Shown: positions 3,501 to 60,532, counted from the first letter of the stretch. The stretch is 64,000 bases of DNA from an uncultured Candidatus Peribacteria bacterium (GCA_964488165.1 CAZATU010000003.1:79372-143371); one strand, 5' to 3'. Notes: generated by a model from the letters alone, not told the origin. Numbers and translations: made by a program.

Positions 3501-4859
3501 CTACACCGCAACGCCGTCGACGTCGCGCACGAAGAGCTCGGATGCCTGAATATGGCCATGTTCCTCGCGATTTTGCTTGCACAAGAAGAGCCACGTCAGA
3601 AGCCAGAACCCTCCCACTACGTAGAGCAACGCCGGAAGGAGCAACAGCGGGATGAGCCGCAACGAAGAGCCGGCGGGGCTGCCGAGCAGTTCCCCGATAT
3701 TCGTCGGTTGGCCGGGCAGCAAATCGGGCAGTGTGACGAGGAAGTTGAAGACAGCATGCAGTACGATGGCCGATACGAGGCCGATAGAAATCATTTCGAT
3801 GCGGAGTACGCGCTCGTCGCTGATGCGCAGCGCCTGCGCGATGCGTCCGGTGATGCCCGTGCCGCGGCCGCGCGCCCGCTGCTGCACCAAGAGAGGCTTT
3901 GCGAAGATGGCAATGCCGAGGAAGTACCCCATCACGCCGGTCGATACGATGTGGACCATGCTCGTGAGCACCGACCGCCCCAGCACATTGCTGAAGAAGC
4001 CCATGACATCGGGCGTTTCGGGGCGCAGCAGATATCCCTCCACGAAGCCCTGGAAGTAGAGCGGATTCACGACGTTCTCGGCAAACGAGAAGCCGATCGC
4101 CGCGATCACCGACAGCTGCAGCACATCGTCGACGCTGGTGAACACCGGCTGGCCGCTGCGGCGCATCACCCAGTATTTGCTCACCTCTTCAAGGACGCCA
4201 ACGAGCAAAAACGCGACGAACTCGGTGGCAAGCAATGCCGTGAGTTTGTTGTGGATACCGAGCGTGTCGTGCACGAAGGAATTGGCAGATTGGTGGAAGC
4301 TTTCCGGAACGATTTTGACGAGGAAGAACTGCAGCTCCACGCCGTGCCGCACCAGCGAGTCGTAAAAGAGGATCGGCAGCGTGGAAAGCATGCCCGCGAA
4401 GAAGAGCAGTAAAACGGCGGAGCGCCGCTCTGTGTGGTACTTGAGGAAGAGGCGACACCAGACGATGGCTGGTATGAGCGCCACGGCACCGGCGATGAGG
4501 TGGGCGTTGCGGTCTTGCGGGGCTTGATGACTGAGGGTGCTAAGCCCCAGCCAGAAAAGGAAGATCCCCAGGATCGTTACTTTTGTTTCCACTTCCCAAG
4601 GGCCGAAGAGCGCCTTCCATCCCAAGATGAGCAGCAGGATGCCGACCGCCGACACGTACGCATTCACGACAGAACCCGGCGTTTGGTAGACCGCGGCGAT
4701 TTTGAGCATCGCCACCGAGCAGAGCGTGCCGAAGACACACGCAAAGAGCAGGTGCAGATTGCGGTGCTGCACGCGCTGGGACAGGTCGAACGCCGCAAGC
4801 AACCCCACAGCAAGAAGCACCATGACCGTGCGCTGCGAGAGGAGATCGGCAAAAGGCAT
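3501..4859 (-). CDS. PrsW-family intramembrane protease
   Basis: Polytopic membrane protein with the PrsW motifs EExxK (LEEVSKYW), FxxxE (GFSFAEN) and HxxxN (LHAVFNF). Start trimmed to MPFADLL. Confidence 0.75.
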   Translation of the reverse strand: MPFADLLSQRTVMVLLAVGLLAAFDLSQRVQHRNLHLLFACVFGTLCSVAMLKIAAVYQTPGSVVNAYVSAVGILLLILGWKALFGPWEVETKVTILGIFLFWLGLSTLSHQAPQDRNAHLIAGAVALIPAIVWCRLFLKYHTERRSAVLLLFFAGMLSTLPILFYDSLVRHGVELQFFLVKIVPESFHQSANSFVHDTLGIHNKLTALLATEFVAFLLVGVLEEVSKYWVMRRSGQPVFTSVDDVLQLSVIAAIGFSFAENVVNPLYFQGFVEGYLLRPETPDVMGFFSNVLGRSVLTSMVHIVSTGVMGYFLGIAIFAKPLLVQQRARGRGTGITGRIAQALRISDERVLRIEMISIGLVSAIVLHAVFNFLVTLPDLLPGQPTNIGELLGSPAGSSLRLIPLLLLPALLYVVGGFWLLTWLFLCKQNREEHGHIQASELFVRDVDGVAV

Positions 4860-18957: not shown

Positions 18958-20880
18958 TTACCAGCTTCTCCAGGGCATCTCGATTTCATCGAGCGGAACG
19001 TCTTCGATAGATAACAGATGGCCGTCCTGCCCGCTTGCAGCCGGCGCCGGCTTGCGCTTGCGGATGCGCGCAATGACTAGAGAAAAGAGTGCCACCACTG
19101 TCAGGCCCGCAAGGCCTACAAGAAGAGGCTGCGGGTTGATCATGGAGAGCACGGAAGTCGACGGCGCGGCGTTGCGCATGAGCCCGCTGCCCGCCGAGGG
19201 CGGCTGCTGGCCATTCGCGGAGACCAAGACGACCTTCACGGCAATCTTGCAGCCGCTGCCGCAGTCGGTGCCACCGTCGCATTCTTCCTTGCCCTGGACG
19301 ATGCCGTCGCCGCAACGGGCCTTCCTGCACTCGTTCGTGCACATATCGTCGTTGATCGCGTTGGCGTCGTCGCATTCTTCCGCCAGCTGACGGATGCCGT
19401 CACCACAGAACACGGTGTGGCAGCCATTGGTACAGCCGTCGGTGTCGATCAGGTTGCCGTCATCGCAGTCTTCTCCGCGCTGAATAAATCCGTCGCCGCA
19501 CGACTGGAATTTGCAGAGCGCGGTGCAGGCGTCGGCGCTGCTTGTATTGCCGTCATCGCACTGTTCGCCCTGCTGCACGATGCCGTCGCCGCACGACGGG
19601 AGCTTGCAGGTATTGGTGCAGGCGTCGGTGTTCATTTGATTGCTATCGTCGCACTGTTCGCCCTGCTGCACGATGCCATCGCCGCACGCGGGGCTGCGGC
19701 AGGAATTGGAACAAATGTCCCCGTTGACGGCGTTGGCATCATCGCAATCTTCGCCGTATTGCACGATGCCGTCGCCGCAGGTCGGCGGGCGGCAGGCATT
19801 GCTGCACCCGTCATCGTTGATGCCGTTGCCGTCGTCGCACAGTTCCGGTGACTGCGTAAAGCCGTCGCCGCAGCCGGGTAAACGGCACGCAACGGTGCAG
19901 AGATCGGCGTTGTTCTCATTGCCGTCATCACACTGTTCGCCGTACTGGAGAATAGCGTCGCCGCAGCTGGGCATGGTGCAGTCGGCCGTGCAACCGTCAT
20001 TGGAGCTGCGATTGCCGTCGTCGCACTGTTCGCCGTACTGGAGGATGCCGTCGCCACACGCCGGACGCTTGCAGGCGTTGGTGCACATGTCCGCATCGAA
20101 TGTGTTTCCGTCGTCGCATTCCTCCCACGGCTGCAAAAAGCCATCGCTGCACCGCGAACTCAGGCAGAGAATCGTGCACGAGTCGGCACTGTTGCGGTTG
20201 CCGTCGTCGCATTCTTCGCCGCGATCGAGCTGGCCGTTGCCGCATTGAGGCGAATACTCGACGACATTCCCCTGCACTGCGGCTTGCTCCTGCGGACGTT
20301 GCACGGCTTGCGCCGCGGCGACCTGTGTTTGCTGTGTGCAGGCGGCGAGGAATTGCGACTCGCAGCCGCCGAAACAACCGTCGTCACCGCAGTCGGGTAC
20401 GGTGCAGATCTGGCCACATGCGGGCTGCTCCTTAAAGCGGAGCACGATGGCATTTTCATCGATTTCCTGGTCGTATTCACCGTACGCGTAATACTGCTGC
20501 GGTTCACAGGACTCGCCGATGGAAGGCGAAACGACGCCATCGCCGCAGAAGAGCTGGCGGCATTTGGCAGTGCAATCGCCGCTGCCGTTCCTGCCGAAGC
20601 CAGTGTCACACTCCTCCCCCTCCTCCATTTGGATCGTGGCGTCCCCGCAATGCGGCGGACGGGGAATGTCATCCTCGGAAAGCTGCACCGGGGGAGCAAG
20701 CTCCACGGGCGGACAGCCGGGCGTATTAATGGCAAGCCCGACGCATTCCATCTGGGCCGAGCCCATTGCGGCGAAGACGCTGAGCGTCACGCCGCCGAGG
20801 AGCACCAAGCTCACAACCGTGGACTGGCGCGATATGGCTCGGGAGGAAGTCATAAATCCAAGTAGTATAGCAAAGAACAT
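18958..20880 (-). CDS. Cys-rich-repeat type I membrane protein (11 tandem 31-aa repeats)
   Basis: Signal peptide, 11 repeats of CGDG.....E.CDD(G/A/S)N....D.C...C at exactly 31-aa spacing, then a TM helix (LLVGLAGLTVVALFSLVIA) and a ~45-aa cytoplasmic tail. Confidence 0.85.
   Translation of the reverse strand: MFFAILLGFMTSSRAISRQSTVVSLVLLGGVTLSVFAAMGSAQMECVGLAINTPGCPPVELAPPVQLSEDDIPRPPHCGDATIQMEEGEECDTGFGRNGSGDCTAKCRQLFCGDGVVSPSIGESCEPQQYYAYGEYDQEIDENAIVLRFKEQPACGQICTVPDCGDDGCFGGCESQFLAACTQQTQVAAAQAVQRPQEQAAVQGNVVEYSPQCGNGQLDRGEECDDGNRNSADSCTILCLSSRCSDGFLQPWEECDDGNTFDADMCTNACKRPACGDGILQYGEQCDDGNRSSNDGCTADCTMPSCGDAILQYGEQCDDGNENNADLCTVACRLPGCGDGFTQSPELCDDGNGINDDGCSNACRPPTCGDGIVQYGEDCDDANAVNGDICSNSCRSPACGDGIVQQGEQCDDSNQMNTDACTNTCKLPSCGDGIVQQGEQCDDGNTSSADACTALCKFQSCGDGFIQRGEDCDDGNLIDTDGCTNGCHTVFCGDGIRQLAEECDDANAINDDMCTNECRKARCGDGIVQGKEECDGGTDCGSGCKIAVKVVLVSANGQQPPSAGSGLMRNAAPSTSVLSMINPQPLLVGLAGLTVVALFSLVIARIRKRKPAPAASGQDGHLLSIEDVPLDEIEMPWRSW
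19246..20244 (-). repeat. 93-bp-period coding tandem repeat array (11 units)
   Basis: The first Cys of successive repeats falls at residues 213, 244, 275 ... 523 of the 640-aa protein, a strict 31-aa (93-nt) period. This is a coding repeat, not a CRISPR. Confidence 0.85.
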
Positions 20881-30698: not shown

Positions 30699-30703
30699 AC
30701 ACC

Positions 30704-31015
30704 ATGAGCACGTTCATCGCCCGCGAGGAACCGTTCGTCTGCGGCAGATGTGGCAAAAACGTTCATCCCTTGGGAAAGGGCTCCTATAGGAACCATTGCC
30801 CATTTTGCCTCTGGAGCAAACACGTCGATGATGAAGGCCCGGGCGACCGCGCATCGGCCTGCAATGGTTTGGAGCAACCGATGGGTGTTGATTTCCGCTC
30901 CAAGAAGGGCTGGATCATTCTTCATGTCTGCACGAAATGTGGAAAAACCATCCGCAATAAAGCTGCTCCGGATGATGATCAGGAGATTCTTTCCACATTG
31001 CGTCCACAGATCTGA
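30704..31015 (+). CDS. RNHCP domain protein
   Basis: Contains the eponymous motif ...GSYRNHCPFCLWSKHVD... plus flanking CxxC pairs (CGRCG, CTKCG). Confidence 0.75.
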   Translation: MSTFIAREEPFVCGRCGKNVHPLGKGSYRNHCPFCLWSKHVDDEGPGDRASACNGLEQPMGVDFRSKKGWIILHVCTKCGKTIRNKAAPDDDQEILSTLRPQI

Positions 31016-31155
31016 AGTATTTTTGTGTTCGGTTTTTCCTTCTTCTGCAAGGGCTCTTTTCCTTATGGTGCTTGCTGTCGAAGAAGGAGTGAGAGTAGCG
31101 TCACCCCTTGCCATGCGTTTCCTGGTGTTTGCCGCCCTCTTCGGCCTGTTGTTCG

Positions 31156-31617
31156 TCAGCTTTTAGGCTTCCCTCCGCCTGCCGACAACACCTGAGCGAT
31201 GTACCGATCGCTGAAGCTGGTCTTCACCGGCAGACGTTCTTGCACATTGCCTTCGGGGAGGGCGTGCACGGCGTCTTCATGGGTTGCGGGGTGCGGCTCC
31301 ACAGCAACGGAGAAGTTCCCCTGCTGCATCGCCGCACGGACACTGGGGGGCGCCTCCTCGGCGTCGAGCACGGCATCAATGCCGTGCGTGCCAATATCCT
31401 CTCGCATGCGCTCATACACCATTCCCTGTGCTTGGGGTTCTGCCTCCAGCGCAAAATGGAATTCTGCGAGCTGTTCGGCTTTACGCATTTCCTTCTCCAA
31501 ATCTTCGGGGCCCTTCACGTTATCGCGCAAACGCTCATACGCTTCGGGGCTGCGCATGCGCTGGCGAATTTTCTCTCGTTCATGCGATGGCAGATGATCG
31601 ACCCAGGAACCTTGCAT
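31156..31617 (-). CDS. Hypothetical protein
   Basis: 153-aa ORF with a charged helical N-half (EREKIRQRMRSPEAYERLRDNVKGPEDLEKEMRKAEQL). No motif recognised. Confidence 0.55.
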   Translation of the reverse strand: MQGSWVDHLPSHEREKIRQRMRSPEAYERLRDNVKGPEDLEKEMRKAEQLAEFHFALEAEPQAQGMVYERMREDIGTHGIDAVLDAEEAPPSVRAAMQQGNFSVAVEPHPATHEDAVHALPEGNVQERLPVKTSFSDRYIAQVLSAGGGKPKS

Positions 31618-47860: not shown

Positions 47861-50800
47861 TTACGCGAGTTCGTCGCGGGGGGGCATATCCGGCAGCGGA
47901 GGGCGGGTGCCCATGCGCGCCGTTCGGTCGCCTCCTTCCACGCCACTGCGGATCGCAGCGGGATCGAGGCCGGGCATTGTGCGCTTCACGGCTTCATCGG
48001 CAAGCACGTGGGCCTCGCCATACGTGTGTAGGGGCGAGCCATCGGGCTTCTTCTGGTCAAGGAAGTGCAGGAGGTAGAAGGAGTAGTACGAGCTTGCATC
48101 GCTCCAGTCGCCGCCCACTACGCCAGTAGCAATATTGGTGACGATCTCCTTGGTATGCACGATCATCGTGACGCGTCCGGTATGGGCGCTGGAAAGCTCG
48201 GTGTAGAGGTTGGTCCGGAGGTTCGCGGGGTCAAGACCACCGCTGTGGCAGGCGATGACGTCGAACGTGAAGCGGCAATCTGGGAAGGCATCTACAAGCC
48301 TGCCAACATCGGCGGGGCTTAAGGGGAACCGCGTTCTGCCGTCGGCGCTGGTAAACGACATACCCGTTGTGGAGCCGTGCACGCCAAGTGAAATGTAGAA
48401 ATCACGCACACCCTGGGCAGTCATGGCGCGCACACTCTCTTCCATCATCGCGTGAGGATCACGGTCGACGCCGCGCGCCGGCGCGCCGGAACTTACGAAC
48501 GTATGCCCACGGCCGGCGAGCATGCGCGGCATGTTCGTAATGTTGTTGCGAGTGATGTTCTGCTTGGCGTCGTAGAGGCCGATATAGCCAATGGGCCGAT
48601 CGCGAGGCAGGTCGAACGTGCGCATCCTTGCGCTGTCGGCGCGCTCGGAAGCGCGGATCGCCTCGCCACGACGCATGGCCTGCTCTACATCGGGCTTGAT
48701 GGCCGGGGTTCCGGTGGAAATATTGGTAAAGAGATCGCCCAAGTGCAGGCTGATCTGCGTCGACGGATCATCGGCGCGGCGCAACGTCACCTCGCTGCTA
48801 TCACCATCGTCGCCTCGGAGGTCCCAGGTGGAGAAGAGCCAACGCTGGGCAACGCCATCGACCGTGCGGGTAAACCCAAAGCATTCCCAGTCCGCTGCAC
48901 CAGCATTCTTGAATACCTCGATTGAGGTCGTGCCGCTGGTATAGCGCGGTGCGCGGGTGAAGCAGCGGTCGACGGATTGGTAGAAATTGAATTTGTCTTG
49001 GTTTGAGAGAGCCCTTCTGCGCAAAAGGAACAGCACCGAGCTGCGAGTATTGACTGAATTGGCTCCGCCTTCGGGCGTTTGCGTCGAGGCATCGTAGGTC
49101 ATCTGCCAGCCGCGGTAGCTCATGTGCACTTTGCGACCCTCGATGCGATGGCCCATGGTGCCCCAGGTGAGGGCATTAACGCGCTTGGCAAAGTCCTGGT
49201 CATCGGCGGAGGGGCCGATGGCATCGGCACCCGTCACATCGCCTGCGCTATACTCGGGAGGCCGCACCGGCGCAGTCTTCACGAATGTAAGCGCTCTACG
49301 TTGCTCGGCGGCAGGATCGGTAATGATCCTGTTGCCCTCTGCGGCACGATTACGAAGCAACGTACGCGACGTATCGTTGGCAGCAAGGGCGGTCAGCGCT
49401 GCGGGTGCTTCGAGCGTGTCGGCTACAGCAAGGCGCTGCTCCACCGTAGCGTTCTTGATGAGGTACGATGACCCGCTCGCCGGCACAATCGTGATGATGC
49501 CCATGAGTCGCGTTGCCGAGAACGGCGCAGGATCGGCATCGGGCAAGGCGATCGAACCGTTGGCTTGAATGGTGTAGCGCTTGGTTGTAGCGCCAACGGT
49601 GACATCGACAGTCACGGCTGCCGTCGCAGGATCGACTGAGAAGGTGGTTGCCCTGTTCTTGATGAGCCTTGGAGGCAAGCCCACAAGCGCTGCTGGGCGC
49701 ACGGCCTCAGGGGCGACATCGCGCGTCACGGCGGGGCTGCCGGCGGGCTGGAAGGTAAAGCGGCCGGGCGTGCGGGAGGTAAAGAGCACGGCGCCTCCTG
49801 CTCTACCGATGCTAAAGGGCAAAGTGGTGATATCCACGGCGCGGCCCCCCGTCTTGAGGCTGCCGTCTGCCAATACTTCATAGACAGTGGTCGTACCGTT
49901 GATGACTGCGGTAAAGGAGATCGGTGATGCGGGCGGCGCAACGCGGAATTCGTGGGTGCGGAAAATCGTCATCGCAGCCGGGAAGCCCTCGAAGCCGGCC
50001 GCTGGCGCGGTGGGCACGCGGTCGACTTCATCGCGGAACGCGCGCGCCGCAGCTTCGAGACGGTCTTTGACCGTGCTGTTCGGCTCGAGCACGTTGAACG
50101 AGCGCGTGGTGCCCCTGTAGGTAAGGGCGACGCTGCGGGGAGGCGTGATGGCAAAGGTCATGCCCGCGGGCAACACAGCGGAAGCCACTGCGGCTTCGAA
50201 GCTGCCGGGCGGGGCCTCTGGGGCGTTGAGCGAAATGCCCGCGGCGATGATGGCATTCGTGTAGGTCGTTTCGAGTGCGGCACCCGAATCAGGCTCCGCG
50301 CCCACGGGGGCCAGGTTGATATCGACGGTGCGGGTGACGCCCGTCTTGCTCATGCGGACAAGGGTGTAGCTCGGGTACGCCTTGGTGATGCTGCCCGGGA
50401 GCGTCACTCTCGACCATGCCCGCTCAAAGCCCCTGCGGCGCTGCAGCTCCCTTGCCGACATCGTGAGGAAGGGCGTGATGGCAACGGCGGTGGTGAGGCC
50501 GGGAGCAATCGGGACCGTGCGCGTGAGGCCGTCAAACGACAATGTCACATCGCGCCCGGCGACCGTCACGATCGAAACACCTGCGGGCAACACGATGCCG
50601 CGGACCATGGCTTCGAAGCCGGGAGCGGTTGTTTCTGCAATGGTACGACGTACGGTCTGCGTGCCGACCTGGAAGGCGAATGTGCCGTTTTGGGTGCAGG
50701 TGATGGTGAGGGCTCCATCGCGGCGGGTGACCGTGAACGGCGCGCCGCCCGCAGGAACGATGGCGCCCGCAGCGTTGATCACGAACGGCCGGGCATCCGC

Positions 50801-51628
50801 GCCTTCCCCAAAGATGATGGTCATGGGCGACGTGGGCGGCGTGACGGTGACGGTAAAAGCGGTGTTGCGCTCGATGCGCTCGGGGATGCCGCGCATGGCA
50901 TCGGGAGTCTCGGGCGAAGAGCCCGGCGTCTCGCCGCTGACAAAGCGCGCCACCTGGTCTTCTAAGTACCTGGCGACGGTGTCGGGACGCTGGCCGCTCA
51001 ATGGAATCACATGCGTGCGGCCGTTCAACTGCACCGTCACCTGCATGGTCTGGTCGTTGAGCAAGACGCCCATCTGCGGGTTGCGCAGCGTGAGGCTCGT
51101 CATGGTCGTGCGCACGTTCTGGAGGAGCAGCATGCGCTCCTGCCCGCCCTCGGGGGCGGAGCCGGGAGGCGTCATGCCCGGGTAGGGAGAGGCGCCGGGA
51201 GGCGCGTACCACATCCACGGGCTGGGGTAGGCGTAGCTCTGGTTGGCATACGGGTACATGCCCGACGTATCGAAGGTACCGTTGGGCCACGTACCGTTCA
51301 TCGCCGGATAGTTCTGCAGGTTGTAGACCATCCCGTAATAGTTCTGCTGGATGCCCTGCATCATGTTGGCGTACACGCCCTGCATCTGCGGCCACATCTG
51401 CTGCTGCATCTGCGGGTACTGGTTGAACATGGGCTGCATCCGGTGCGACATCTGCGCGAAGGTGTTGCACATCTGCAGGCAGAACGCGGCGAAGCCGTCG
51501 ACGTTGAGATCAAGCTGTTGGGGGGCTTCGGTCGTCTGCTGCACAGCCTCGGGAGGCGTGGGCACGGCACCGCTTTCCGGAGGAGCGGATTGCCACAGAA
51601 GCCGGCGTTCGGAGAAACGATGCGACAT
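47861..51628 (-). CDS. Giant protein, paralog 1: ERRLL N-motif, Q/M/Y/P low-complexity region, beta-rich repeats, C-terminal caspase-fold (metacaspase/orthocaspase-like) domain
   Basis: Start trimmed to MSHRFSERRLLWQS. The C-terminal region FYISLGVHGSTTG-(x34)-FTFDVIACHSGGL has His at 48377-48379 and Cys at 48248-48250. No signal peptide or TM. Confidence 0.85.
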   Translation of the reverse strand: MSHRFSERRLLWQSAPPESGAVPTPPEAVQQTTEAPQQLDLNVDGFAAFCLQMCNTFAQMSHRMQPMFNQYPQMQQQMWPQMQGVYANMMQGIQQNYYGMVYNLQNYPAMNGTWPNGTFDTSGMYPYANQSYAYPSPWMWYAPPGASPYPGMTPPGSAPEGGQERMLLLQNVRTTMTSLTLRNPQMGVLLNDQTMQVTVQLNGRTHVIPLSGQRPDTVARYLEDQVARFVSGETPGSSPETPDAMRGIPERIERNTAFTVTVTPPTSPMTIIFGEGADARPFVINAAGAIVPAGGAPFTVTRRDGALTITCTQNGTFAFQVGTQTVRRTIAETTAPGFEAMVRGIVLPAGVSIVTVAGRDVTLSFDGLTRTVPIAPGLTTAVAITPFLTMSARELQRRRGFERAWSRVTLPGSITKAYPSYTLVRMSKTGVTRTVDINLAPVGAEPDSGAALETTYTNAIIAAGISLNAPEAPPGSFEAAVASAVLPAGMTFAITPPRSVALTYRGTTRSFNVLEPNSTVKDRLEAAARAFRDEVDRVPTAPAAGFEGFPAAMTIFRTHEFRVAPPASPISFTAVINGTTTVYEVLADGSLKTGGRAVDITTLPFSIGRAGGAVLFTSRTPGRFTFQPAGSPAVTRDVAPEAVRPAALVGLPPRLIKNRATTFSVDPATAAVTVDVTVGATTKRYTIQANGSIALPDADPAPFSATRLMGIITIVPASGSSYLIKNATVEQRLAVADTLEAPAALTALAANDTSRTLLRNRAAEGNRIITDPAAEQRRALTFVKTAPVRPPEYSAGDVTGADAIGPSADDQDFAKRVNALTWGTMGHRIEGRKVHMSYRGWQMTYDASTQTPEGGANSVNTRSSVLFLLRRRALSNQDKFNFYQSVDRCFTRAPRYTSGTTSIEVFKNAGAADWECFGFTRTVDGVAQRWLFSTWDLRGDDGDSSEVTLRRADDPSTQISLHLGDLFTNISTGTPAIKPDVEQAMRRGEAIRASERADSARMRTFDLPRDRPIGYIGLYDAKQNITRNNITNMPRMLAGRGHTFVSSGAPARGVDRDPHAMMEESVRAMTAQGVRDFYISLGVHGSTTGMSFTSADGRTRFPLSPADVGRLVDAFPDCRFTFDVIACHSGGLDPANLRTNLYTELSSAHTGRVTMIVHTKEIVTNIATGVVGGDWSDASSYYSFYLLHFLDQKKPDGSPLHTYGEAHVLADEAVKRTMPGLDPAAIRSGVEGGDRTARMGTRPPLPDMPPRDELA

Positions 51629-51629
51629 G

Positions 51630-51905
51630 CTATGCGTCGAAATTGGGAAGCGGCTCACTCTGACGTTCCTGTTCTTCCTTGCAGCTGCGGCCGAGCTTCT
51701 CCCCTTTCTTCACGAGCTGGTCCATGGAATCGATCCCCTCTTGCACGACGCGTGCGTGCGCATCAAGACCATCACGGAGGAGCTGGGTGATGCTGATGCG
51801 ATCAATTTCCTTCAGACGATCGCTGGCATCGGCAAGCGCCTGACGCACCGGAGGCGGCAGGAGAGGCATGGCCAGCACGAAGGCGCGGAAGGTGGCGGAG
51901 TCCAT
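51630..51905 (-). CDS. Small helical protein (91 aa), partner of giant paralog 1
   Basis: MDSATFRAFVLAMPLLPPPVRQALADASDRL... The TAG stop lies 1 nt before the giant's ATG. Clear paralog of 54613..54894. Confidence 0.75.
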   Translation of the reverse strand: MDSATFRAFVLAMPLLPPPVRQALADASDRLKEIDRISITQLLRDGLDAHARVVQEGIDSMDQLVKKGEKLGRSCKEEQERQSEPLPNFDA

Positions 51906-51919
51906 GTGTGTTTCTCGCC

Positions 51920-51948
51920 ACTATAGCAAAAAAGCCCGATTGAAGCAA
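51920..51948 (-). promoter_or_regulatory. Sigma70-like promoter candidate, module 1
   Basis: Minus strand: TTGCTT (51948-51943), 17-nt spacer ending ...TGC, TATAGT (51925-51920). Only 14 nt to ATG 51905. Confidence 0.5.
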
Positions 51949-51979
51949 TACGGACATCTTCGCATAAGACAATGACCGT

Positions 51980-54616
51980 TTACGCGCTTGCGCCGGGCGA
52001 GATGCCCGGAGGCAGAGGAGGATGCGCATCGGAGCGCGCCGTGCGCTCGCCGCCTGCAACACCGCTGCGGATGACCGCCGGATCAAGACCAGGCAACGTC
52101 CTTTTGATCGCCTCGTCAGCCAGGAGATGCGCTTCGCCATACGTATACAGAGGAGAGCCATCGGGCTTTTTCTGATCGAGGTAATGCAAGAGGAAGAACG
52201 TGTAGAACGACGTAGCATCGCTCCAATCGCGTCCGCCATTGCGAATCCCGGTGGCGATATTATTGACGATTTGCTTCGTGTGGACGAACACGGTCACGCG
52301 CCCGGCGTGCGCACTGGAAAGCTCGGTATAGAGGTTCGTACCAAGATTTGGCGCATCCAGGCCGCCGGTATGGCAAGCGATAACATCGAAAGTGAAGCGA
52401 CAATCCGGATGCGCATCCACCAGCGTGCCAATCTGCTCGGGCGTGAGCGGATAGCGCTCCGAGCCGTCCCTGAACGCCATACCCGTCATGGAGCCATGGA
52501 CCCCGAGGGAAATATAGAAATCATGCACTCCGCTGCGATACAGTTCCGTCACCCGCTCTTCCATCATGGCCAACGGAGCGCGGTTCACGGGCGTGGCGAC
52601 GTCGCCGGATGTCACGAACGTATGCCCTCTGCTCGCGAGCATGCGCGGCATATCGGTCATCGTGTTCTTCGTCATATTCTCATTGCGATCATAGAGTCCG
52701 ATATACCCAATGGGCCGATCGCGCGGGAGCTCGAACGTGCGTATCCGTGCGGCATCGGCCCGCTCCGAAGCACGGATTGCCTCCGCACGACGCATGGCTT
52801 GCTCCACTTCGGCCTTAATGGCCGGCATTCCAGCCTCAATGTTGGTGAACATGTTCTGGAGCTCCACATTGATTTGCGTCGAGGGATCATCGGCGCGACG
52901 CAGTGTGATACTGCCTTCGACGCCTTGCGCACTGCGCGTTGTAAATACGGAAGCGAACCAGCGCTGTGTGACGCCATTGACGGTGCGGGTACATCCGAAA
53001 TGCTCCCAGTCATTCGCCTTGGCATCCTTGAAGACTTCGACGGTCGTGCCAGCGTCGCTCCATCGCGTTGCCCCTGTGAAGCAGCGATCAAGCGATTGGT
53101 AATAATCGAATTTCTCCTGCGTTCCCAAGGATCTGCCACGAGCAATGAAGAGGGCATCAAGCTCCTCTCTGACCAGTGCTGCCGCGGCTGCAGGCGTTTT
53201 GCCTGCCGTGTCACACGTTCGCATCCAACCTCGGTAGCTCATATGAACAAGGCGCCCTTCAATGCGATGCTTCATCGTACTTCCCCATGGCAACGCATTC
53301 ACGAGCTTTCCAAATTCCTGATCGGCAGCTGAGTCGCCTATGGCATCGGCGCCCGTAACATCGCCTTCGCGATATTCGTCAAGCACGAAGGGCTTCTTTC
53401 GCTGCAAGCGAAAGAGATCCTGCTGATCGAAGAGTGGCTTGGTGAGCAGCTGATCGCCCCGCTGCGCTCGCAACCTCAGCGCATCACGCGATTCTTGATT
53501 GGCTGTAAGGAGCGTGAGGCCCTTTGGCACGACGACAGTATCGGCAACGGCAATACGCGACTCCGCCGCGCCGTTCTTCAACGCATACAATGTACCGCTC
53601 TTCGGCGTGATCGTGATCGCGCCCAGCAGACGGGTGACAGTGAATGGCGCAAGAGTGTCATCAGGGGTGGCGATCGTACCGTTTGCCTGGATTGCATAGC
53701 GCTTGGTGGCGTCACCATCGGTGACATCGACCGTGACGGGCGCATCGGCCGGATCGATGGAGAACGTGCTCGGCTGGTTCCTGATGAAACGCGACGGCAA
53801 AGCAACGAATGCCGACGGACGACGAGGCTCCGGAGCAACGTCACGCGTAATGGGAGCTTCTGCACCGGAGCGGAACGTAAAACGCCCGGCGACGCGCGAT
53901 GCAAACGCTACGGCGCCTCCGGCGCGACCCAGGCTGAACGGCAATGCTGCAATATCCACTGCCTTGCCACCCGTCTTGAGTAGGCCATCGGCACCAAGGT
54001 CGTAGACGGTGCTGACGCCGCCGATGAGCGTCGTGCATGCCAGTGGCGCAGCAGCAGGCACCATGCGGAACGTGGATGCTCCGAAGATCCTCATCGCTTC
54101 AGGAAAATCCTCAAAGCCTCCGGAAGGAGCATCTGCAACGCGCTCCGGCTCACCTTTCGTCTGCACAGCGCCATCTGCGTCCGCGCCAACCGCAGACGTG
54201 CCGCCCGGCGACGGCGTATACCACGTCTCCGGCTGTGGGTAGGCGTCGCTCTGGCCACCATGAGGATATGTACTCGCCGAGCTGACGACATCGTTGGGCC
54301 AGGCGCCGTTCATGGCGGAGTACTTCTGGATTGCCTGAAGCATCCCGTCATAGTTCTGCTCAATGCCCTCCGTCATGGTGGCGTAGACCCCCTGGATCTG
54401 CGGCCAGAGCTGCTGCTGCATAGCCTCGGGATAGCGCTTGAACATAGGCTCGAATGCATGTGTGGCCTGCGAAAACGTGTTCACAAGCTCCGGAGAGGAA
54501 TCTCCGGCATCCTGCATGGCGGCCGGCATTCCTTCAGGAGTGGCGGCAGGCTCGCGTGCCTGTTCGGGGTTGGTAGCCTGGTTCAGAAGCCGTCGTTCGC
54601 GAAGGCTCGCGATCAT
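51980..54616 (-). CDS. Giant protein, paralog 2 (same architecture, shorter repeat region)
   Basis: MIASLRERRLLNQA..., ...FYISLGVHGSMTG-(x34)-FTFDVIACHTGGL (Cys at 52373-52375). Collinear with paralog 1 over its C-terminal ~700 aa. Confidence 0.85.
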   Translation of the reverse strand: MIASLRERRLLNQATNPEQAREPAATPEGMPAAMQDAGDSSPELVNTFSQATHAFEPMFKRYPEAMQQQLWPQIQGVYATMTEGIEQNYDGMLQAIQKYSAMNGAWPNDVVSSASTYPHGGQSDAYPQPETWYTPSPGGTSAVGADADGAVQTKGEPERVADAPSGGFEDFPEAMRIFGASTFRMVPAAAPLACTTLIGGVSTVYDLGADGLLKTGGKAVDIAALPFSLGRAGGAVAFASRVAGRFTFRSGAEAPITRDVAPEPRRPSAFVALPSRFIRNQPSTFSIDPADAPVTVDVTDGDATKRYAIQANGTIATPDDTLAPFTVTRLLGAITITPKSGTLYALKNGAAESRIAVADTVVVPKGLTLLTANQESRDALRLRAQRGDQLLTKPLFDQQDLFRLQRKKPFVLDEYREGDVTGADAIGDSAADQEFGKLVNALPWGSTMKHRIEGRLVHMSYRGWMRTCDTAGKTPAAAAALVREELDALFIARGRSLGTQEKFDYYQSLDRCFTGATRWSDAGTTVEVFKDAKANDWEHFGCTRTVNGVTQRWFASVFTTRSAQGVEGSITLRRADDPSTQINVELQNMFTNIEAGMPAIKAEVEQAMRRAEAIRASERADAARIRTFELPRDRPIGYIGLYDRNENMTKNTMTDMPRMLASRGHTFVTSGDVATPVNRAPLAMMEERVTELYRSGVHDFYISLGVHGSMTGMAFRDGSERYPLTPEQIGTLVDAHPDCRFTFDVIACHTGGLDAPNLGTNLYTELSSAHAGRVTVFVHTKQIVNNIATGIRNGGRDWSDATSFYTFFLLHYLDQKKPDGSPLYTYGEAHLLADEAIKRTLPGLDPAVIRSGVAGGERTARSDAHPPLPPGISPGASA

Positions 54617-54894
54617 GCGGCGGAAGAAAAGTCGGGTAGAGCTTCCGACGAACGCTCGCTCTGCTCATCCAATGCACGCATCATTTTGCCGCCCTTCTTC
54701 ACGAGCTCTTCGATCTGCCTGATGCCCTCATGCAGCAGGCTTGCATGTTGTTCCAGTCCTTTGCGCAGAATCCGGACGATGGCGATGCGATCAGACTCCT
54801 GAAAACGCTCACCGGCGTCTGCGAGCGCCTCACGTACCGCGGGCGGCAGCAAGGGCATGGCGAGCACGTACGCGCGGAAGCTGGCGAGATCCAT
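54613..54894 (-). CDS. Small helical protein (93 aa), partner of giant paralog 2
   Basis: MDLASFRAYVLAMPLLPPAVREALADAGERF... ATGA overlap with the giant's start. Confidence 0.75.
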   Translation of the reverse strand: MDLASFRAYVLAMPLLPPAVREALADAGERFQESDRIAIVRILRKGLEQHASLLHEGIRQIEELVKKGGKMMRALDEQSERSSEALPDFSSAA

Positions 54895-55376: not shown

Positions 55377-55874
55377 ATGCGCCCATCTGTCTTCCTCGCC
55401 GCACTTGCGGCAGCGGCCATCCTCGCACCGCTCGCCGCCCTGTCGCTGCGATTCTCAGCGGCGGTGCTCCCGCCCGCGGGCGGCGAAGTGGTCATCGGCA
55501 TCGACCATCAACACGTCGCCACCCTCACGGTGACGGCGACACGCAGTAACGGAAAGCTGTTGTTCGCGGCCGATAACACCGGAACGTCGGGCTTGGGCCT
55601 GCTCGTGCCCGCCGACTGGAAACGCTCCGAAGTACGCAACGTTCCTATTGATTCGATGACGATGGAGCCTCCGGTGCTCGGCATGCGGCGGGTGAGCATC
55701 GCGTCGGGAGCGGGCGTGAGCTTCACTGGTGCCTTCCCTGCAACACTTAAGCTCCATGCGGCCGGAGCGGCGGCGCTCAAAGTGACGATGATCGCGGTGG
55801 ATCTCGATAACGGAACATCGAGCCGGGATGTGCGGTTAGTGCAGCAATCGACGGTGGTGTTGTGGGGAGAGTAG
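55377..55874 (+). CDS. Small secreted protein (hypothetical)
   Basis: Start trimmed to MRPSVFLAALAAAAILAPLAALS (signal-peptide-like). Beta-rich remainder. Confidence 0.55.
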   Translation: MRPSVFLAALAAAAILAPLAALSLRFSAAVLPPAGGEVVIGIDHQHVATLTVTATRSNGKLLFAADNTGTSGLGLLVPADWKRSEVRNVPIDSMTMEPPVLGMRRVSIASGAGVSFTGAFPATLKLHAAGAAALKVTMIAVDLDNGTSSRDVRLVQQSTVVLWGE

Positions 55875-55910
55875 TTCTTTGCAGTAGGGCCGCTTGGGAA
55901 GCAGACTCTA

Positions 55911-56471
55911 TTCCCACTTTTTTAGAAAAAGTTGCCAACGAAACATGCCGGTTTCTTTGCCAACCACACGAATATTCCACCCTTGTCCAAGCGACAAGGG
56001 TGGAGCCCAAGCGCGTGCCGTCAAAGCCCCCACTCCACTTGCGGCACCACCCCCGGCGTTGACGGCGGGCCACCCCAACACGGCATCGCCGTCTACCGCT
56101 CTCCTAGGTATACACATCGGGAGGAAGGAGAACGGGAGGGCCGCCGGGCTGCTCCATCGCGAAGAATCAATCGAACATCCGAACCAGAAGAATGTTGTAC
56201 AGAAGCGCAGCCTGGTTTCTTCTACCAACCTGGCGCGGCCCCGCTGCCACGGGGGGTGTGAGGGGTAGCCCCGCCGTGTCGTGGCGCAGCGAACCGAGCT
56301 GCGCCAACGAGACGAGGAGTCGGACGGGAAACCTTGGACCGTCCGACGACGAGGCCCGGGGCGGTGCGGAGTGTGCACTTGGCGGCGGAGACTTTTCTTT
56401 CGCCGGTTTCTTTGTGTGGTGACAAAGAAATCGGCATCTCTCGTTACGGCAATTTTCTAAAAAAGTGGGAA
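55911..56471. repeat. ~560-bp non-coding element bounded by ~58-bp imperfect terminal inverted repeats, with a GC-rich hairpin-dense core
   Basis: The reverse complement of the left arm (55911-55969, ttcccacttttttagaaaaagttgccaacgaaacatgccggtttctttgccaaccacac) aligns with the right arm (56414-56471, gtgtggtgacaaagaaatcggcatctctcgttacggcaattttctaaaaaagtgggaa), with most positions identical. The core contains perfect hairpins, e.g. ccacccttgtc/gacaagggtgg (55977-56003), ggcgcagc/gctgcgcc and gtcggacgg/ccgtccgac. Only Arg/Pro-rich junk ORFs overlap it. Confidence 0.7.
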
Positions 56472-56500
56472 AGAGAATTTCTCTATGTAGCAAAGAAAAC

Positions 56501-57232
56501 CTAAATAAACCCCTCCACATGCAAATGCTGTTTCTGCAAGCCCCACGTTTCGAGACAGAGTTTTTTCACCTCCGCCGTCATGTCGGGGTTGCCGCATACG
56601 TACACGGTATGGCCGGAGAGATCCGGCAGGATGGTGGGCGTGATCTGCTGGATGCGTCCGCGCAGCCCCTTCCACGCCGCGCTCGGCTGGGAGAGCGTGA
56701 CATGGAGGCGAACGTGCGGATGCTTGGCGCACAGCGCCGACCACTCTTCGAGCCAGAAGAGATCCTCTTCGCTGCGCACGCCGAACACGACGTCCATGGG
56801 GCGTGTATCGCCGCTGGCAAGCGCCGCACGCACATGCGAGCGGAACGGCGCGATGCCCGTGCTGGTGGAAAGAAACATCAGCGGCCGCCCGTCGTGCTCG
56901 AGAACAAAACGTCCGAAAGGCCCCTGGATATCGACACTCCCCCCTTCGCGAAGCGCATGCTCAATCCAGCGGCTCGCCCTGCCGCCGTCTTTGCGCTTGA
57001 TGATGAAGAGCAGCGTGTCTTCCTCGGGCGAAGAAGCGATGGAATAGGCGCGCGGCTGGATATCGGATGGATCATCGAGGCTTGGCACACGCCACAGGAC
57101 GAACTGCCCGGCTTCGTACGCAAACCCCTCGGGGCGCTCCAGCACGATCTCGTGCGTCCCGCGGGCGATGACCGCATTCTTGAGGCAGCGTACGGCAAAG
57201 ATGGGTGTAGCCACAGAAGCCCACTGTACCAC
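56501..57232 (-). CDS. Ferredoxin-NADP reductase-type FAD/NAD(P)-binding oxidoreductase
   Basis: RAYSIASSP (RxYS FAD motif), STSTGIAPF (NAD(P) motif), C-terminal VCGNPDM. Confidence 0.85.
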   Translation of the reverse strand: MVQWASVATPIFAVRCLKNAVIARGTHEIVLERPEGFAYEAGQFVLWRVPSLDDPSDIQPRAYSIASSPEEDTLLFIIKRKDGGRASRWIEHALREGGSVDIQGPFGRFVLEHDGRPLMFLSTSTGIAPFRSHVRAALASGDTRPMDVVFGVRSEEDLFWLEEWSALCAKHPHVRLHVTLSQPSAAWKGLRGRIQQITPTILPDLSGHTVYVCGNPDMTAEVKKLCLETWGLQKQHLHVEGFI

Positions 57233-58414: not shown

Positions 58415-60532
58415 TTACACCACGTCGGAGCCAGCAGACAGACCGTCAGGGCGGAAGCTCGCCGTTTCGACGCCGCCGGTGGGTGTGGTGCGGAAGACGC
58501 CGGCGTCGAGGCCGGGCCACGCGCGTTTGGTGGCTTCGTCGGCGGCGACATGAGCCTGGCCGTACGTCATGCCCTGGTTCAAGAAATGCACGAGGTAGTA
58601 GTCGTAGGGCGTATCGAAGTTGCGGCTGCGGCTGCCGTCGGGGTTCCTCGTTCTGCTGTCGGTGGTCCGGATGGGGTTCGGGAGCTCGGGCTTGGTCTGG
58701 ATGAAGACGCTGATGCGTCCGGACTCTCCGGCAGCTCGGAATTGCTCCGCCATGCGCCCGCTTTGGAAACCGCCGCTGTTGCAGCAGTTCATGCGCAGCA
58801 CGAAGCGGCAATCGTTGTACTTGCTCTTCTTGAACAAGTTCATGAGCTGGCTCGGCTCCAAATCAATCCTGCCTCCGCCGGGGATACCAAATCCTACACT
58901 CGTAGTATCGCCGTGGACGGAGAAATACAGATAGTGATTCTTGATACCGGCGCGGTAGGCAGCATCGAAACGCGACTCGAGGGTGCCAAGCAAGTCCCTA
59001 CCCGCGGCAAAGGTGTCGTTGCCGCCGCCAACCATGTTGTAGCCACGGCTGCCGAGGAATGAGCCGAAGTTGCGGGCATGGTTCTCCTCGGTGGGATCGG
59101 TCTGATCGAAGACACCCGTGTAGAGGATCGACTCGCCACGCGGGAGATCGAAGTTCCGGACGTTTGCGGCGTCGTTGGTCTCGCTCGCGCGGCGTTTGCG
59201 CGCAACTTGCAATGCTTCCTTGATGGCAGAGCCGTTAAGACCGGGTGATGCCAAGAAGGTTCTCGTAAGACCTGCAGCCTGCATGAGCATATCTGAGGCA
59301 TTCTGGAACACGATATTTTGTTCCATGACATGGTTGGTGACGGCCGCTGCAACGTACCAACGTTCGGTCGTACCACCATGATTGACTTCGATAGCGTACC
59401 TGCGGCCATGCTCCGGAGGATTGACGCGCTTGAGCGTGACACCATCGGAAGTACGATCGATACTGGCATCCAATCTGGTCCGAACACTGGAATCGTAGTC
59501 ATTGGCCATTTGCCGGTACACCGAGTTCGGATCTTCGGCAGTGGTACGCACCCAATCGAGACGTGTTTGAATGAAGGACCGTGCCGTCTCGGAATATTCG
59601 ACGCGATTGTAACCGGCACCTGGCGCGACGTCGGGGCCGCGCGGCATTGCGCCAGGCGGCGTTACTCCGGGGCTTGCCGAACCCGACACGGTAATGTCCT
59701 GCCACTGGTAGGGGTTGCGCTCCATTTGATCCTTCCAGCCCACGGAGAAAAGCCCCGGCCGGGTGAATTCGAAGCGGAATGTATGGATATCGCCGAAACG
59801 CGTGGGGCGCACGCGCACGCCGGCCGCCGCTAGAAGCGCGTTGCCGTTTGCCGGCTCCACACTGAGCGTGCGGCTGTTCACGTACACCGATTGCTGCACG
59901 CCACCGGTGCCCGGGAGTTTGACGGCAACAAGGGAGGTGGCATTCAGAATTTCCGTGGAAGCGAGCACGCCGCCGGGCGTCACCTCGGGAGCGCCGGGGG
60001 GTGGACCATAGGGAGGCGCATACGGGTTCGACGGCGGGCCACCATACGGCGCATACGGGTTCGACGGCGGGCCGGATTGCGACGAAGAGCCGGGTCTCCT
60101 GGGCCGCTGGGGGACTCGGCGGCCACCAGGAATGAAAGGCGAATTCGAAGGGTCGGACTGCGGCATGCCGTTGTAATACGGCGGCATGTACTGCGCGTAG
60201 GGATTCGCCTGCTGGCCGTATTGGCCGTAGTACATGTGGGGATATTGCTGGTTGCCCTGCTGCATGCCCGGGTAGCCACTCATCCCCTGCTGCTGCATGA
60301 ACATGTACATCGAGGCATCCACACCCTGGGAGCCGTACTGCTGATACACATTCTGGTAGCCGGGTGAGGCATAGAACTGATTCACGTATTTGAGCGCTTC
60401 CTGGACGCCGGATTCGATGTCGCGCGGCGTTTCACCGGCTCCCTCGGGGGGCGTCGGTCTGTTCTCGGGAGCGGCATGCTGCGCAAGCAGGCGACGTTCC
60501 GCGGCCGTCGAGAAAGCGATGCGGTGGTTCAT
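58415..60532 (-). CDS. Giant protein, paralog 3 (divergent): ERRLL N-motif, Q/Y/G/M/P low-complexity region, C-terminal caspase-fold domain
   Basis: Start trimmed to MNHRIAFSTAAERRLLAQH. ...HYLYFSVHGDTTSVG-(x32)-RFVLRMNCCNSGG (Cys codons at 58781-58786). It shares NFDLPRG... and YGQAHVAADEATKRAWPGLD with paralogs 1 and 2. Confidence 0.8.
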   Translation of the reverse strand: MNHRIAFSTAAERRLLAQHAAPENRPTPPEGAGETPRDIESGVQEALKYVNQFYASPGYQNVYQQYGSQGVDASMYMFMQQQGMSGYPGMQQGNQQYPHMYYGQYGQQANPYAQYMPPYYNGMPQSDPSNSPFIPGGRRVPQRPRRPGSSSQSGPPSNPYAPYGGPPSNPYAPPYGPPPGAPEVTPGGVLASTEILNATSLVAVKLPGTGGVQQSVYVNSRTLSVEPANGNALLAAAGVRVRPTRFGDIHTFRFEFTRPGLFSVGWKDQMERNPYQWQDITVSGSASPGVTPPGAMPRGPDVAPGAGYNRVEYSETARSFIQTRLDWVRTTAEDPNSVYRQMANDYDSSVRTRLDASIDRTSDGVTLKRVNPPEHGRRYAIEVNHGGTTERWYVAAAVTNHVMEQNIVFQNASDMLMQAAGLTRTFLASPGLNGSAIKEALQVARKRRASETNDAANVRNFDLPRGESILYTGVFDQTDPTEENHARNFGSFLGSRGYNMVGGGNDTFAAGRDLLGTLESRFDAAYRAGIKNHYLYFSVHGDTTSVGFGIPGGGRIDLEPSQLMNLFKKSKYNDCRFVLRMNCCNSGGFQSGRMAEQFRAAGESGRISVFIQTKPELPNPIRTTDSRTRNPDGSRSRNFDTPYDYYLVHFLNQGMTYGQAHVAADEATKRAWPGLDAGVFRTTPTGGVETASFRPDGLSAGSDVV

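Follow-up and report, generated by a model that had tools for sequence, protein, structure and literature searches.

Bacterial MITEs and foldback elements such as ERIC, RUP and the Tn3-derived TIMEs are non-coding, shorter than 600 bp, bounded by terminal inverted repeats, and intergenic. They are present or absent at orthologous sites and can be folded into one long hairpin. The Correia elements of Neisseria (CREE or NEMIS) also adjoin genes and have inverted-repeat ends. Correia elements duplicate TA, and their co-transcribed copies fold into long hairpins that are cleaved by RNase III. The genomes of CPR bacteria are small and are reputed to be poor in mobile and repetitive DNA.

We describe an element in a CPR genome that resembles MITEs and foldback elements in all of these respects, and that resembles Correia elements in adjoining genes and in its inverted-repeat ends. 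We propose that a non-coding foldback DNA of about 534 bp, restricted to one lineage, sits in the middle of a hairpin at a junction between convergent genes. It was a single syntenic relative that changed the reading of the element.

The element and its surroundings

The window is the whole 64-kb stretch of DNA that was analysed. Its host is Peribacteria-like (CPR): the best matches of the FNR-like oxidoreductase beside the element fall in the Peregrinibacteria/Peribacteria. Chromosomal housekeeping genes surround the element (carA, rpoC, fusA, and class II ribonucleotide reductase). The two genes next to it are convergent, as a first-pass annotation made from the sequence alone had described: the ORF on its left is on the plus strand and the FNR-like oxidoreductase on its right is on the minus strand (Table 1).

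The same part of the window contains paralogous modules (47861-54894), in which the region of an 878-aa gene matches that of a 1265-aa ORF (47915-49858) at 65-73% at the nucleotide level. A paralog of the 93-aa gene lies at about 51703-51932, and a different paralog is found at the position of the 878-aa gene in strain B, a near-identical strain that is described below (L074 1050-2350). Pfam gave no match for any of the large ORFs, which are 1265, 878, 726, and 733 aa long. Exact direct repeats of at least 25 nt occur inside long ORFs at 19556-19660 (93 nt apart) and at 60015-60053 (33 nt apart); the latter pair encodes the peptide PPSNPYAP, which the 726-aa protein contains as a repeat.

The first-pass annotation had reported terminal inverted repeats of about 58 bp, and inverted repeats are indeed present at the ends of the element. 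The outer arms (55911-55929 and 56453-56471) are complementary at 19 of 19 positions, and a second block of 26 nt (55937-55962 and 56420-56445) is 85% complementary. Gapped blastn joins these blocks into a single inverted repeat, 55906-55972 versus 56411-56475, with 84% identity over 69 columns (E = 5e-12); at the left end, CTCT at 55906-55909 gives four extra base pairs beyond a 1-nt bulge. The outer 19-mer is unique within the 64-kb window (0.01 chance matches expected), and we found no other comparable inverted repeat anywhere in the window. The arms also share a 13-mer, GCCGGTTTCTTTG, which has three matches versus 0.1 expected by chance: one in the left arm, one that is an internal direct copy, and one that is inverted in the right arm.

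Between the arms lies a GC-rich core with many hairpins. The local stems that had been named from the sequence are all present, except that the last of them (56402-56435), which had been called perfect, contains a G.T mismatch. Because the 3' half of this last hairpin belongs to the right arm, it competes with the long closing stem. Also, the predicted fold of the whole element pairs the left arm of the 56017-56066 stem differently. A degenerate palindrome spanning the whole element was ruled out, as the halves of the core are complementary to each other no more than shuffled sequences are.

Table 1. Coordinates in the window of the element, its parts, and the genes on either side
Feature	Position	Strand	Description
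Left flanking gene	55377-55874	+	165-aa protein as called in public contigs (165/181-aa ORF); no Pfam match
Left inverted-repeat arm	55906-55972		outer 55911-55929 perfect
Element	55911-56471		about 560 bp; non-coding; between two convergent genes
First 22 nt of the 27-nt hairpin TTCCCACTTTTTTAGAAAAAGTGGGAA	55911-55932		whole hairpin intact in the syntenic relative L003
Alternative parse of the element	55925-56457		533 nt; TA flanks (55923-24, 56458-59); both repeat tips begin GAAAA
Direct repeat AAAAAGT, left copy	55926-55932	+	7 nt; bounds the indel
Indel relative to L003	55933-56466		534 nt
13-mer GCCGGTTTCTTTG, copy 1	55947-55959	+	in the left arm
GC-rich core	55973-56410		438 nt; unique sequence; 65% GC; hairpin-dense
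Hairpin	55976-56004		perfect 12-bp stem; 5-nt loop
Stem	56017-56028 / 56055-56066		11/12 pairs; 26-nt loop
Hairpin	56283-56290 / 56298-56305		perfect 8 bp; 7-nt loop
Hairpin	56319-56327 / 56339-56347		perfect 9 bp; 11-nt loop
13-mer GCCGGTTTCTTTG, copy 2	56402-56414	+	internal direct copy
Hairpin	56402-56415 / 56422-56435		13/14 pairs; the mismatch is G.T
Right inverted-repeat arm	56411-56475		outer 56453-56471 perfect
13-mer GCCGGTTTCTTTG, copy 3	56423-56435	-	inverted; 1 mismatch; in the right arm
Direct repeat AAAAAGT, right copy	56460-56466	+	7 nt; bounds the indel
Last 5 nt (GGGAA) of the 27-nt hairpin	56467-56471		displaced 534 nt downstream in the window
Right flanking gene	56501-57214 (or to 57232)	-	FNR-like FAD/NAD-binding oxidoreductase, 237 aa

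The whole element folds with z = -10.0 on the plus strand and -10.3 on the minus strand. Because these values are dominated by the closing stem, we folded the core (55973-56410) separately, which gave z = -5.4 to -5.5 on the plus strand and -4.0 to -4.6 on the minus strand. For comparison, 39 mostly coding 438-nt windows from the same 64 kb had a mean z of -0.11 (sd 1.31), and 9 control gaps between long ORFs ranged from -2.8 to +1.3. Since the core alone is beyond the controls, its excess structure is real and goes beyond the pairing of the ends. The earlier description of an element with a hairpin-dense core stands: the core has z of about -5.5 (plus strand) and the lowest control is at -2.86. 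(Another non-coding gap in the window, 30699-31283, contains short palindromes at 30771-30802 and 30924-31011, and its fold is unremarkable, with z = -1.3.)

Base composition sets the core apart from most other gaps as well. The control gaps are 54-66% GC, with 7 of the 9 at 54-57% and the others at 59% and 66%. That the core, at 65% GC, lies above the 54-57% of these 7 gaps and is far more structured is consistent with foreign or selfish DNA. As a counterpoint, a core z near -5 together with high GC is also expected from a structured RNA. G.U pairs make up about 7% of the pairs on each strand of the element. Given this and that both strands fold equally well, the element carries no strand-specific RNA signature, and given that the local stems are perfect Watson-Crick stems, palindromy at the level of DNA is favoured over a one-stranded RNA.

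Searches for genes, RNA families, and further copies

The element was described at first as non-coding, and our tests agree: it has no period-3 signal, no Pfam match, and no protein relative. A period-3 GC signal is present in every neighbouring gene and is absent from the element. None of its six reading frames matches Pfam at E <= 10, and its concatenated six-frame translation has no match at E <= 10 among 5.8 billion proteins. On these three grounds we rejected a hidden protein gene. A decayed pseudogene of the F420_ligase-like gene that some relatives have at this junction was also rejected: nothing was found by tblastn, by the family HMM with its filters off, or by blastn.

The first reading, by eye, had seen no resemblance to known RNA families and had proposed a covariance-model scan. 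We found no match in Rfam 15 at the gathering thresholds across the whole 64-kb window. Relaxing the cut-off to E <= 10 gave only noise in the region: 18-19 bits for a miRNA precursor and for a lncRNA region, both of them eukaryotic families. ARAGORN found no tRNA or tmRNA. An ORF-less class C group II intron was rejected because there is no match to Intron_gpII or to D1-D4 at E <= 10 and because the ends are not GUGYG...AY. A consensus scan identified no promoter-like site within the element, and it does not call the outer hairpin as an intrinsic terminator; facing terminators for the two flanking genes had been one suggestion of the first-pass annotation. The T and A runs of the outer hairpin sit within its stem; its counterpart in L003 has UUUU 2 nt past the stem, on one strand only.

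No second copy of the element was found by blastn within the 64-kb window, and plasmids and phages that were searched by blastn had no match to it. A scan of JGI metagenomes with the motif that is conserved between the arms gave five chance-level matches, and none of them extended. The four scans of IMG/VR produced either no match, generic hairpins, or a single chance match of 22 nt. The outer 19-mer, scanned against GTDB in a set that is evidently without the source lineage, was found in unrelated taxa only, in A/T hairpins that match by chance or by convergence. Exact-pattern scans with the arm motifs did not find an autonomous IS with matching ends. The hairpins are not a REP/BIME-type repeated palindromic unit: they are unrelated to each other in sequence, and no motif from them recurs elsewhere in the window. 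The literature that we searched on MITEs in CPR or Peribacteria, and on insertion into terminator hairpins, held nothing relevant.

We observed two kinds of similar short sequence in other bacteria. In a Kistimonas MAG, the A/T-rich 19-mer TTCCCACTTTTTTAGAAAA is present 10 times on a single chromosome (OZ220224.1; L004, L007, L011, L014, L024, L028, L035, L036, L045, and L046), where it is apparently a repeat family of its own. Near-identical hairpins of 22-26 nt are found in several unrelated bacteria, and these look convergent rather than homologous to the element.

A single syntenic copy with covariation had been put forward as the mark of an ncRNA. This is not what we found: the closest syntenic relative is without the element, so there is no homolog for covariation testing, and our searches found no homologs with compensatory changes. 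The first-pass annotation had left the choice between a structured ncRNA and a MITE-like element. What holds from both options is that the element is non-coding, bounded by inverted repeats, structured, and without an RNA family; the reading as a conserved ncRNA is not supported.

An empty site in a relative and a rearranged junction in a strain

The closest other lineage is represented by an ENA contig (L003), whose FNR protein is 75% identical (amino acids) to that of the window. The gene order is the same in L003: carA and FNR, followed by convergent ORFs of 165 aa, 120 aa, and 93 aa and a large ORF. However, the element is absent from the syntenic site. The convergent genes of L003 are only 121 nt apart, and the spacer between them holds an intact 27-nt hairpin, TTCCCACTTTTTTAGAAAAAGTGGGAA. 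In the window, the two parts of this hairpin are 534 nt apart: the left junction reads TTCCCACTTTTTTAGAAAAAGT and the right junction reads GGGAA. Removing 55933-56466, so that 55911-55932 is joined to 56467-56471, gives the 27-nt hairpin of L003, base for base.

As removal of the indel regenerates the L003 hairpin, the perfect outer part of the "terminal inverted repeat" consists largely of a pre-existing hairpin that is split in two. The repeats reported by the first-pass annotation are thus real, but that annotation had overlooked that their 19-nt perfect part is essentially this split hairpin. The element proper lies inside the hairpin halves, with imperfect inverted repeats of its own of about 45 nt.

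Because the indel is bounded by the direct repeat AAAAAGT, its placement can slide by 7 nt. Another parse of the element has TA on both sides (Table 1), but TA is self-complementary and lies inside an inverted repeat, so the pair of TAs is no independent evidence for a target duplication. The A/T-palindromic context by itself would be expected to produce both candidate target duplications (TA/TA and AAAAAGT/AAAAAGT), and the repeat tips do not agree cleanly with either. Judging by these sequences, the indel would be explained equally well by insertion in the lineage of the window and by loss from L003 through slippage at the AAAAAGT repeats. The orthologous site is filled in the window, has both ends in strain B, and has only the 27-nt hairpin in L003.

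The T5-YAG-A5-GT motif occurs a second time in the spacer of L003, as TTTTTCAGAAAAAGTT, on the upstream side of the conserved hairpin (3700-3795, reverse strand). It resembles the left junction of the window, at about 5 sd above shuffled sequences. This suggests repeated turnover of small palindromes in the spacer.

Among the more distant relatives that we examined, we found no outgroup with the same gene adjacency. An F420_ligase-like gene occupies this junction in L048, L049, and L079-L081, and FNR is in the other orientation in L048 and L077-L081. The arrangement of these genes varies among the related Peribacteria (L049 5001-7046; L079 1702-3729; L077 1052-2325; window 55377-57232): in some the 169-aa gene, the ligase gene, and FNR are co-directional, and in some the ligase gene is missing. 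FNR is inverted and coupled to carA in L049 and in the lineage of the window. The element occupies the position that the ligase gene has in these relatives, with no detectable remnant of that gene.

We also compared the window with strain B, which we reached by a cluster look-up (loci L071-L076, from five Logan runs). Strain B differs from the window by about 2-3% over the adjacent 1 kb or so on the left and by about 2% over FNR-carA on the right. The left spacer and the left arm of strain B are identical to those of the window up to 55967, and its outer right arm, TTTTCTAAAAAAGTGGGAAA (56453-56472), is identical as well. The right spacer, from the element to the FNR stop codon, is 28 nt in the window (56473-56500), 61-62 nt in strain B (read from L071 3671-3731, L072, and L073), and 18 nt in L003, and these three spacers cannot be aligned with each other. 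Since the right spacer of strain B is unalignable even though its flanks are about 98% identical, the boundary at 56472/56473 is a rearrangement junction between near-identical strains.

The left arm is independently confirmed by Logan contigs of the same strain, to 55999, and of strain B, to 55967; the outer 20-30 nt of the right arm are independently confirmed in L001, L002, and L071-L073. All 8 of the independent k = 31 Logan flank contigs that reach the element stop inside it (5 runs; L001, L002, L051, and L071-L075). Runs with strain A include SRR14271332 and SRR13076506, and runs with strain B include SRR14271353, SRR14271359, SRR14271360, and SRR14271361. Contigs of strain A, the strain of the window, stop at 55999 from the left (read from one contig) and at 56443 from the right; those of strain B stop at 55967 from the left and at 56453 from the right. 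The right end in strain A and both ends in strain B recur at the same base in 2 or 3 independent runs. The stretch 56000-56442 is spanned by no independent assembly and its sequence comes from the source assembly alone.

The 64-kb window contains no repeated 30-mer that would explain these breaks, so some other sequence in the samples shares these 30-mers and then diverges. This sequence could come from other copies, divergent interiors, or internal-deletion alleles. A simple inverton is disfavoured: if the perfect 19-nt repeat were the site of the flip, left contigs should break at 55929, but they break at 55967 and 55999. A simple model with a multicopy MITE does not explain the breaks either, as the positions that it predicts do not fit all four contig ends. 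All four would be predicted if full-length alleles were mixed with internally deleted ones. The element exemplifies a type of sequence that breaks short-k metagenome assemblies.

Origin of the element and related systems

We tentatively favour a MITE-like or foldback insertion that is lodged in a hairpin and restricted to this lineage, or else its deletion-prone remnant, and we give this reading a probability of roughly 0.4. Its MITE traits are terminal inverted repeats, a length of 534-565 bp without a transposase or other coding capacity, and filled and empty sites. It would most likely be a mobile element, MITE-like and non-autonomous, that entered this site, or else the relic of one. As a whole, the feature is best viewed as an indel polymorphism at a conserved hairpin. 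The difference from L003 would then reflect insertion rather than deletion in L003. The locus also appears to be structurally unstable, given the relative that is without the element and the right junction that is rearranged between near-identical strains. If a read-through transcript entered the element from either flanking gene, the base of the original hairpin would be rebuilt by the closing stem of about 65 bp, of which 19 bp are perfect. This stem may present a long double-stranded 3' structure, of the type that RNase III can cleave, as in Correia elements.

It is less probable, though conceivable, that the element is a non-mobile palindromic spacer that was locally rearranged after the loss of the F420_ligase-like gene and has no function beyond its basal hairpin. 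An inverted duplication would have made the arms, the ancestor of the three lineages would have had the long form, and slippage between the two copies of AAAAAGT would have removed 534 nt from L003. A deletion at this 7-nt microhomology reproduces every base of the L003 hairpin, and there are no other copies in the window or in the JGI metagenome scan. The junction is also volatile in ways that suit this account: its right side was replaced between strains that are about 2% apart, its gene order was repeatedly rearranged among relatives, and the reproducible contig breaks would fit co-existing internal-deletion alleles. But neutral decay leaves unexplained why a 438-nt core should have z of about -5, perfect stems of 8-12 bp, and high GC. 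Nor can a simple inverted duplication generate the core, because the core halves are not a degenerate palindrome, and the lost gene has left no remnant. A lineage-specific structured RNA of about 440-560 nt, transcribed by read-through and excised or stabilised via the closing stem of about 65 bp, seems unlikely. It would account for the extreme fold z of the whole element and of the core alone, both well beyond the background, and for the GC enrichment of the core relative to most other non-coding gaps; the right arm has alternative pairings, with the left arm or with the internal copy of the 13-mer, and two strains retain both ends. On the other hand, the closest other lineage is without the element at the syntenic site, there is no covariation support since no homolog was found, and Rfam gave no match. 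Fold energy and G.U content show no asymmetry between the strands, there is no promoter-like site, and a stable functional RNA would not usually have long perfect stems and a perfect duplex of 19 bp. Nothing that we saw marks the element as an independent RNA gene.

We consider it very improbable that the core arose as an error in the assembly of the source MAG, through a wrong path that joined two genuine contig ends, each bearing a hairpin. The lack of any independent assembly that bridges 56000-56442, with all of the flank contigs stopping at or before this stretch, is what such an error would look like. However, the inner right arm (56411-56442) is able to pair with the left arm, for which there is independent verification, the arms are imperfect (84%) and fold-back artefacts are perfect, and the verified left contig already extends 27 nt into the core. 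Rather improbable, too, is an element of a type undescribed in CPR: either a mobile foldback DNA that targets hairpin loops, or a strain-variable structured RNA of about 440 nt that is freed from read-through transcripts by cleavage of the closing stem. Either form, if true, would account for the heterogeneity of the assemblies, because the interior would vary between co-occurring cells or be missing from some of them.

If the element is a foldback insert that targets hairpins or derives from hairpins in a CPR bacterium, then it would be a useful marker for genome instability and strain variation. It is also a cautionary case: an RNA gene should not be deduced from a strong fold z and long pairing of the ends alone.

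Among the known systems, the large ornate ncRNAs (OLE, GOLLD, ROOL, and HEARO) are similar to the element in size (about 400-800 nt), in their heavy predicted structure, and in being intergenic. They differ in that they are conserved across many genomes with covariation, whereas the element is found in one narrow lineage and has no match in Rfam 15. We have not filed the element as a MITE: unlike MITEs, it has no second copy or copy family, no cognate IS, and no clear target duplication in the searched data. Its arms are also unusually long for a MITE (about 65 nt), and its core is GC-rich and packed with unrelated perfect hairpins. Correia elements differ in being 100-155 bp long, with 26-bp repeats, in hundreds of copies, and in Neisseria only, and they have no sequence similarity to the element; TA flanks one parse of the element, as in the Correia duplication, but it is uninformative because it lies inside a palindrome. 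The position of the element recalls the IS that insert into palindromes, namely IS1397 and ISKpn1 in REP loops and IS110/IS1111-type elements in REP-like hairpins. Those are autonomous IS with a transposase or recombinase, which the element does not have, and the hairpin that the element occupies is not a repeated REP family within the window, unlike the REP targets. What they have in common with the element is a position at the centre of a pre-existing hairpin, so that the halves of the target flank the element and lengthen its apparent terminal repeats.
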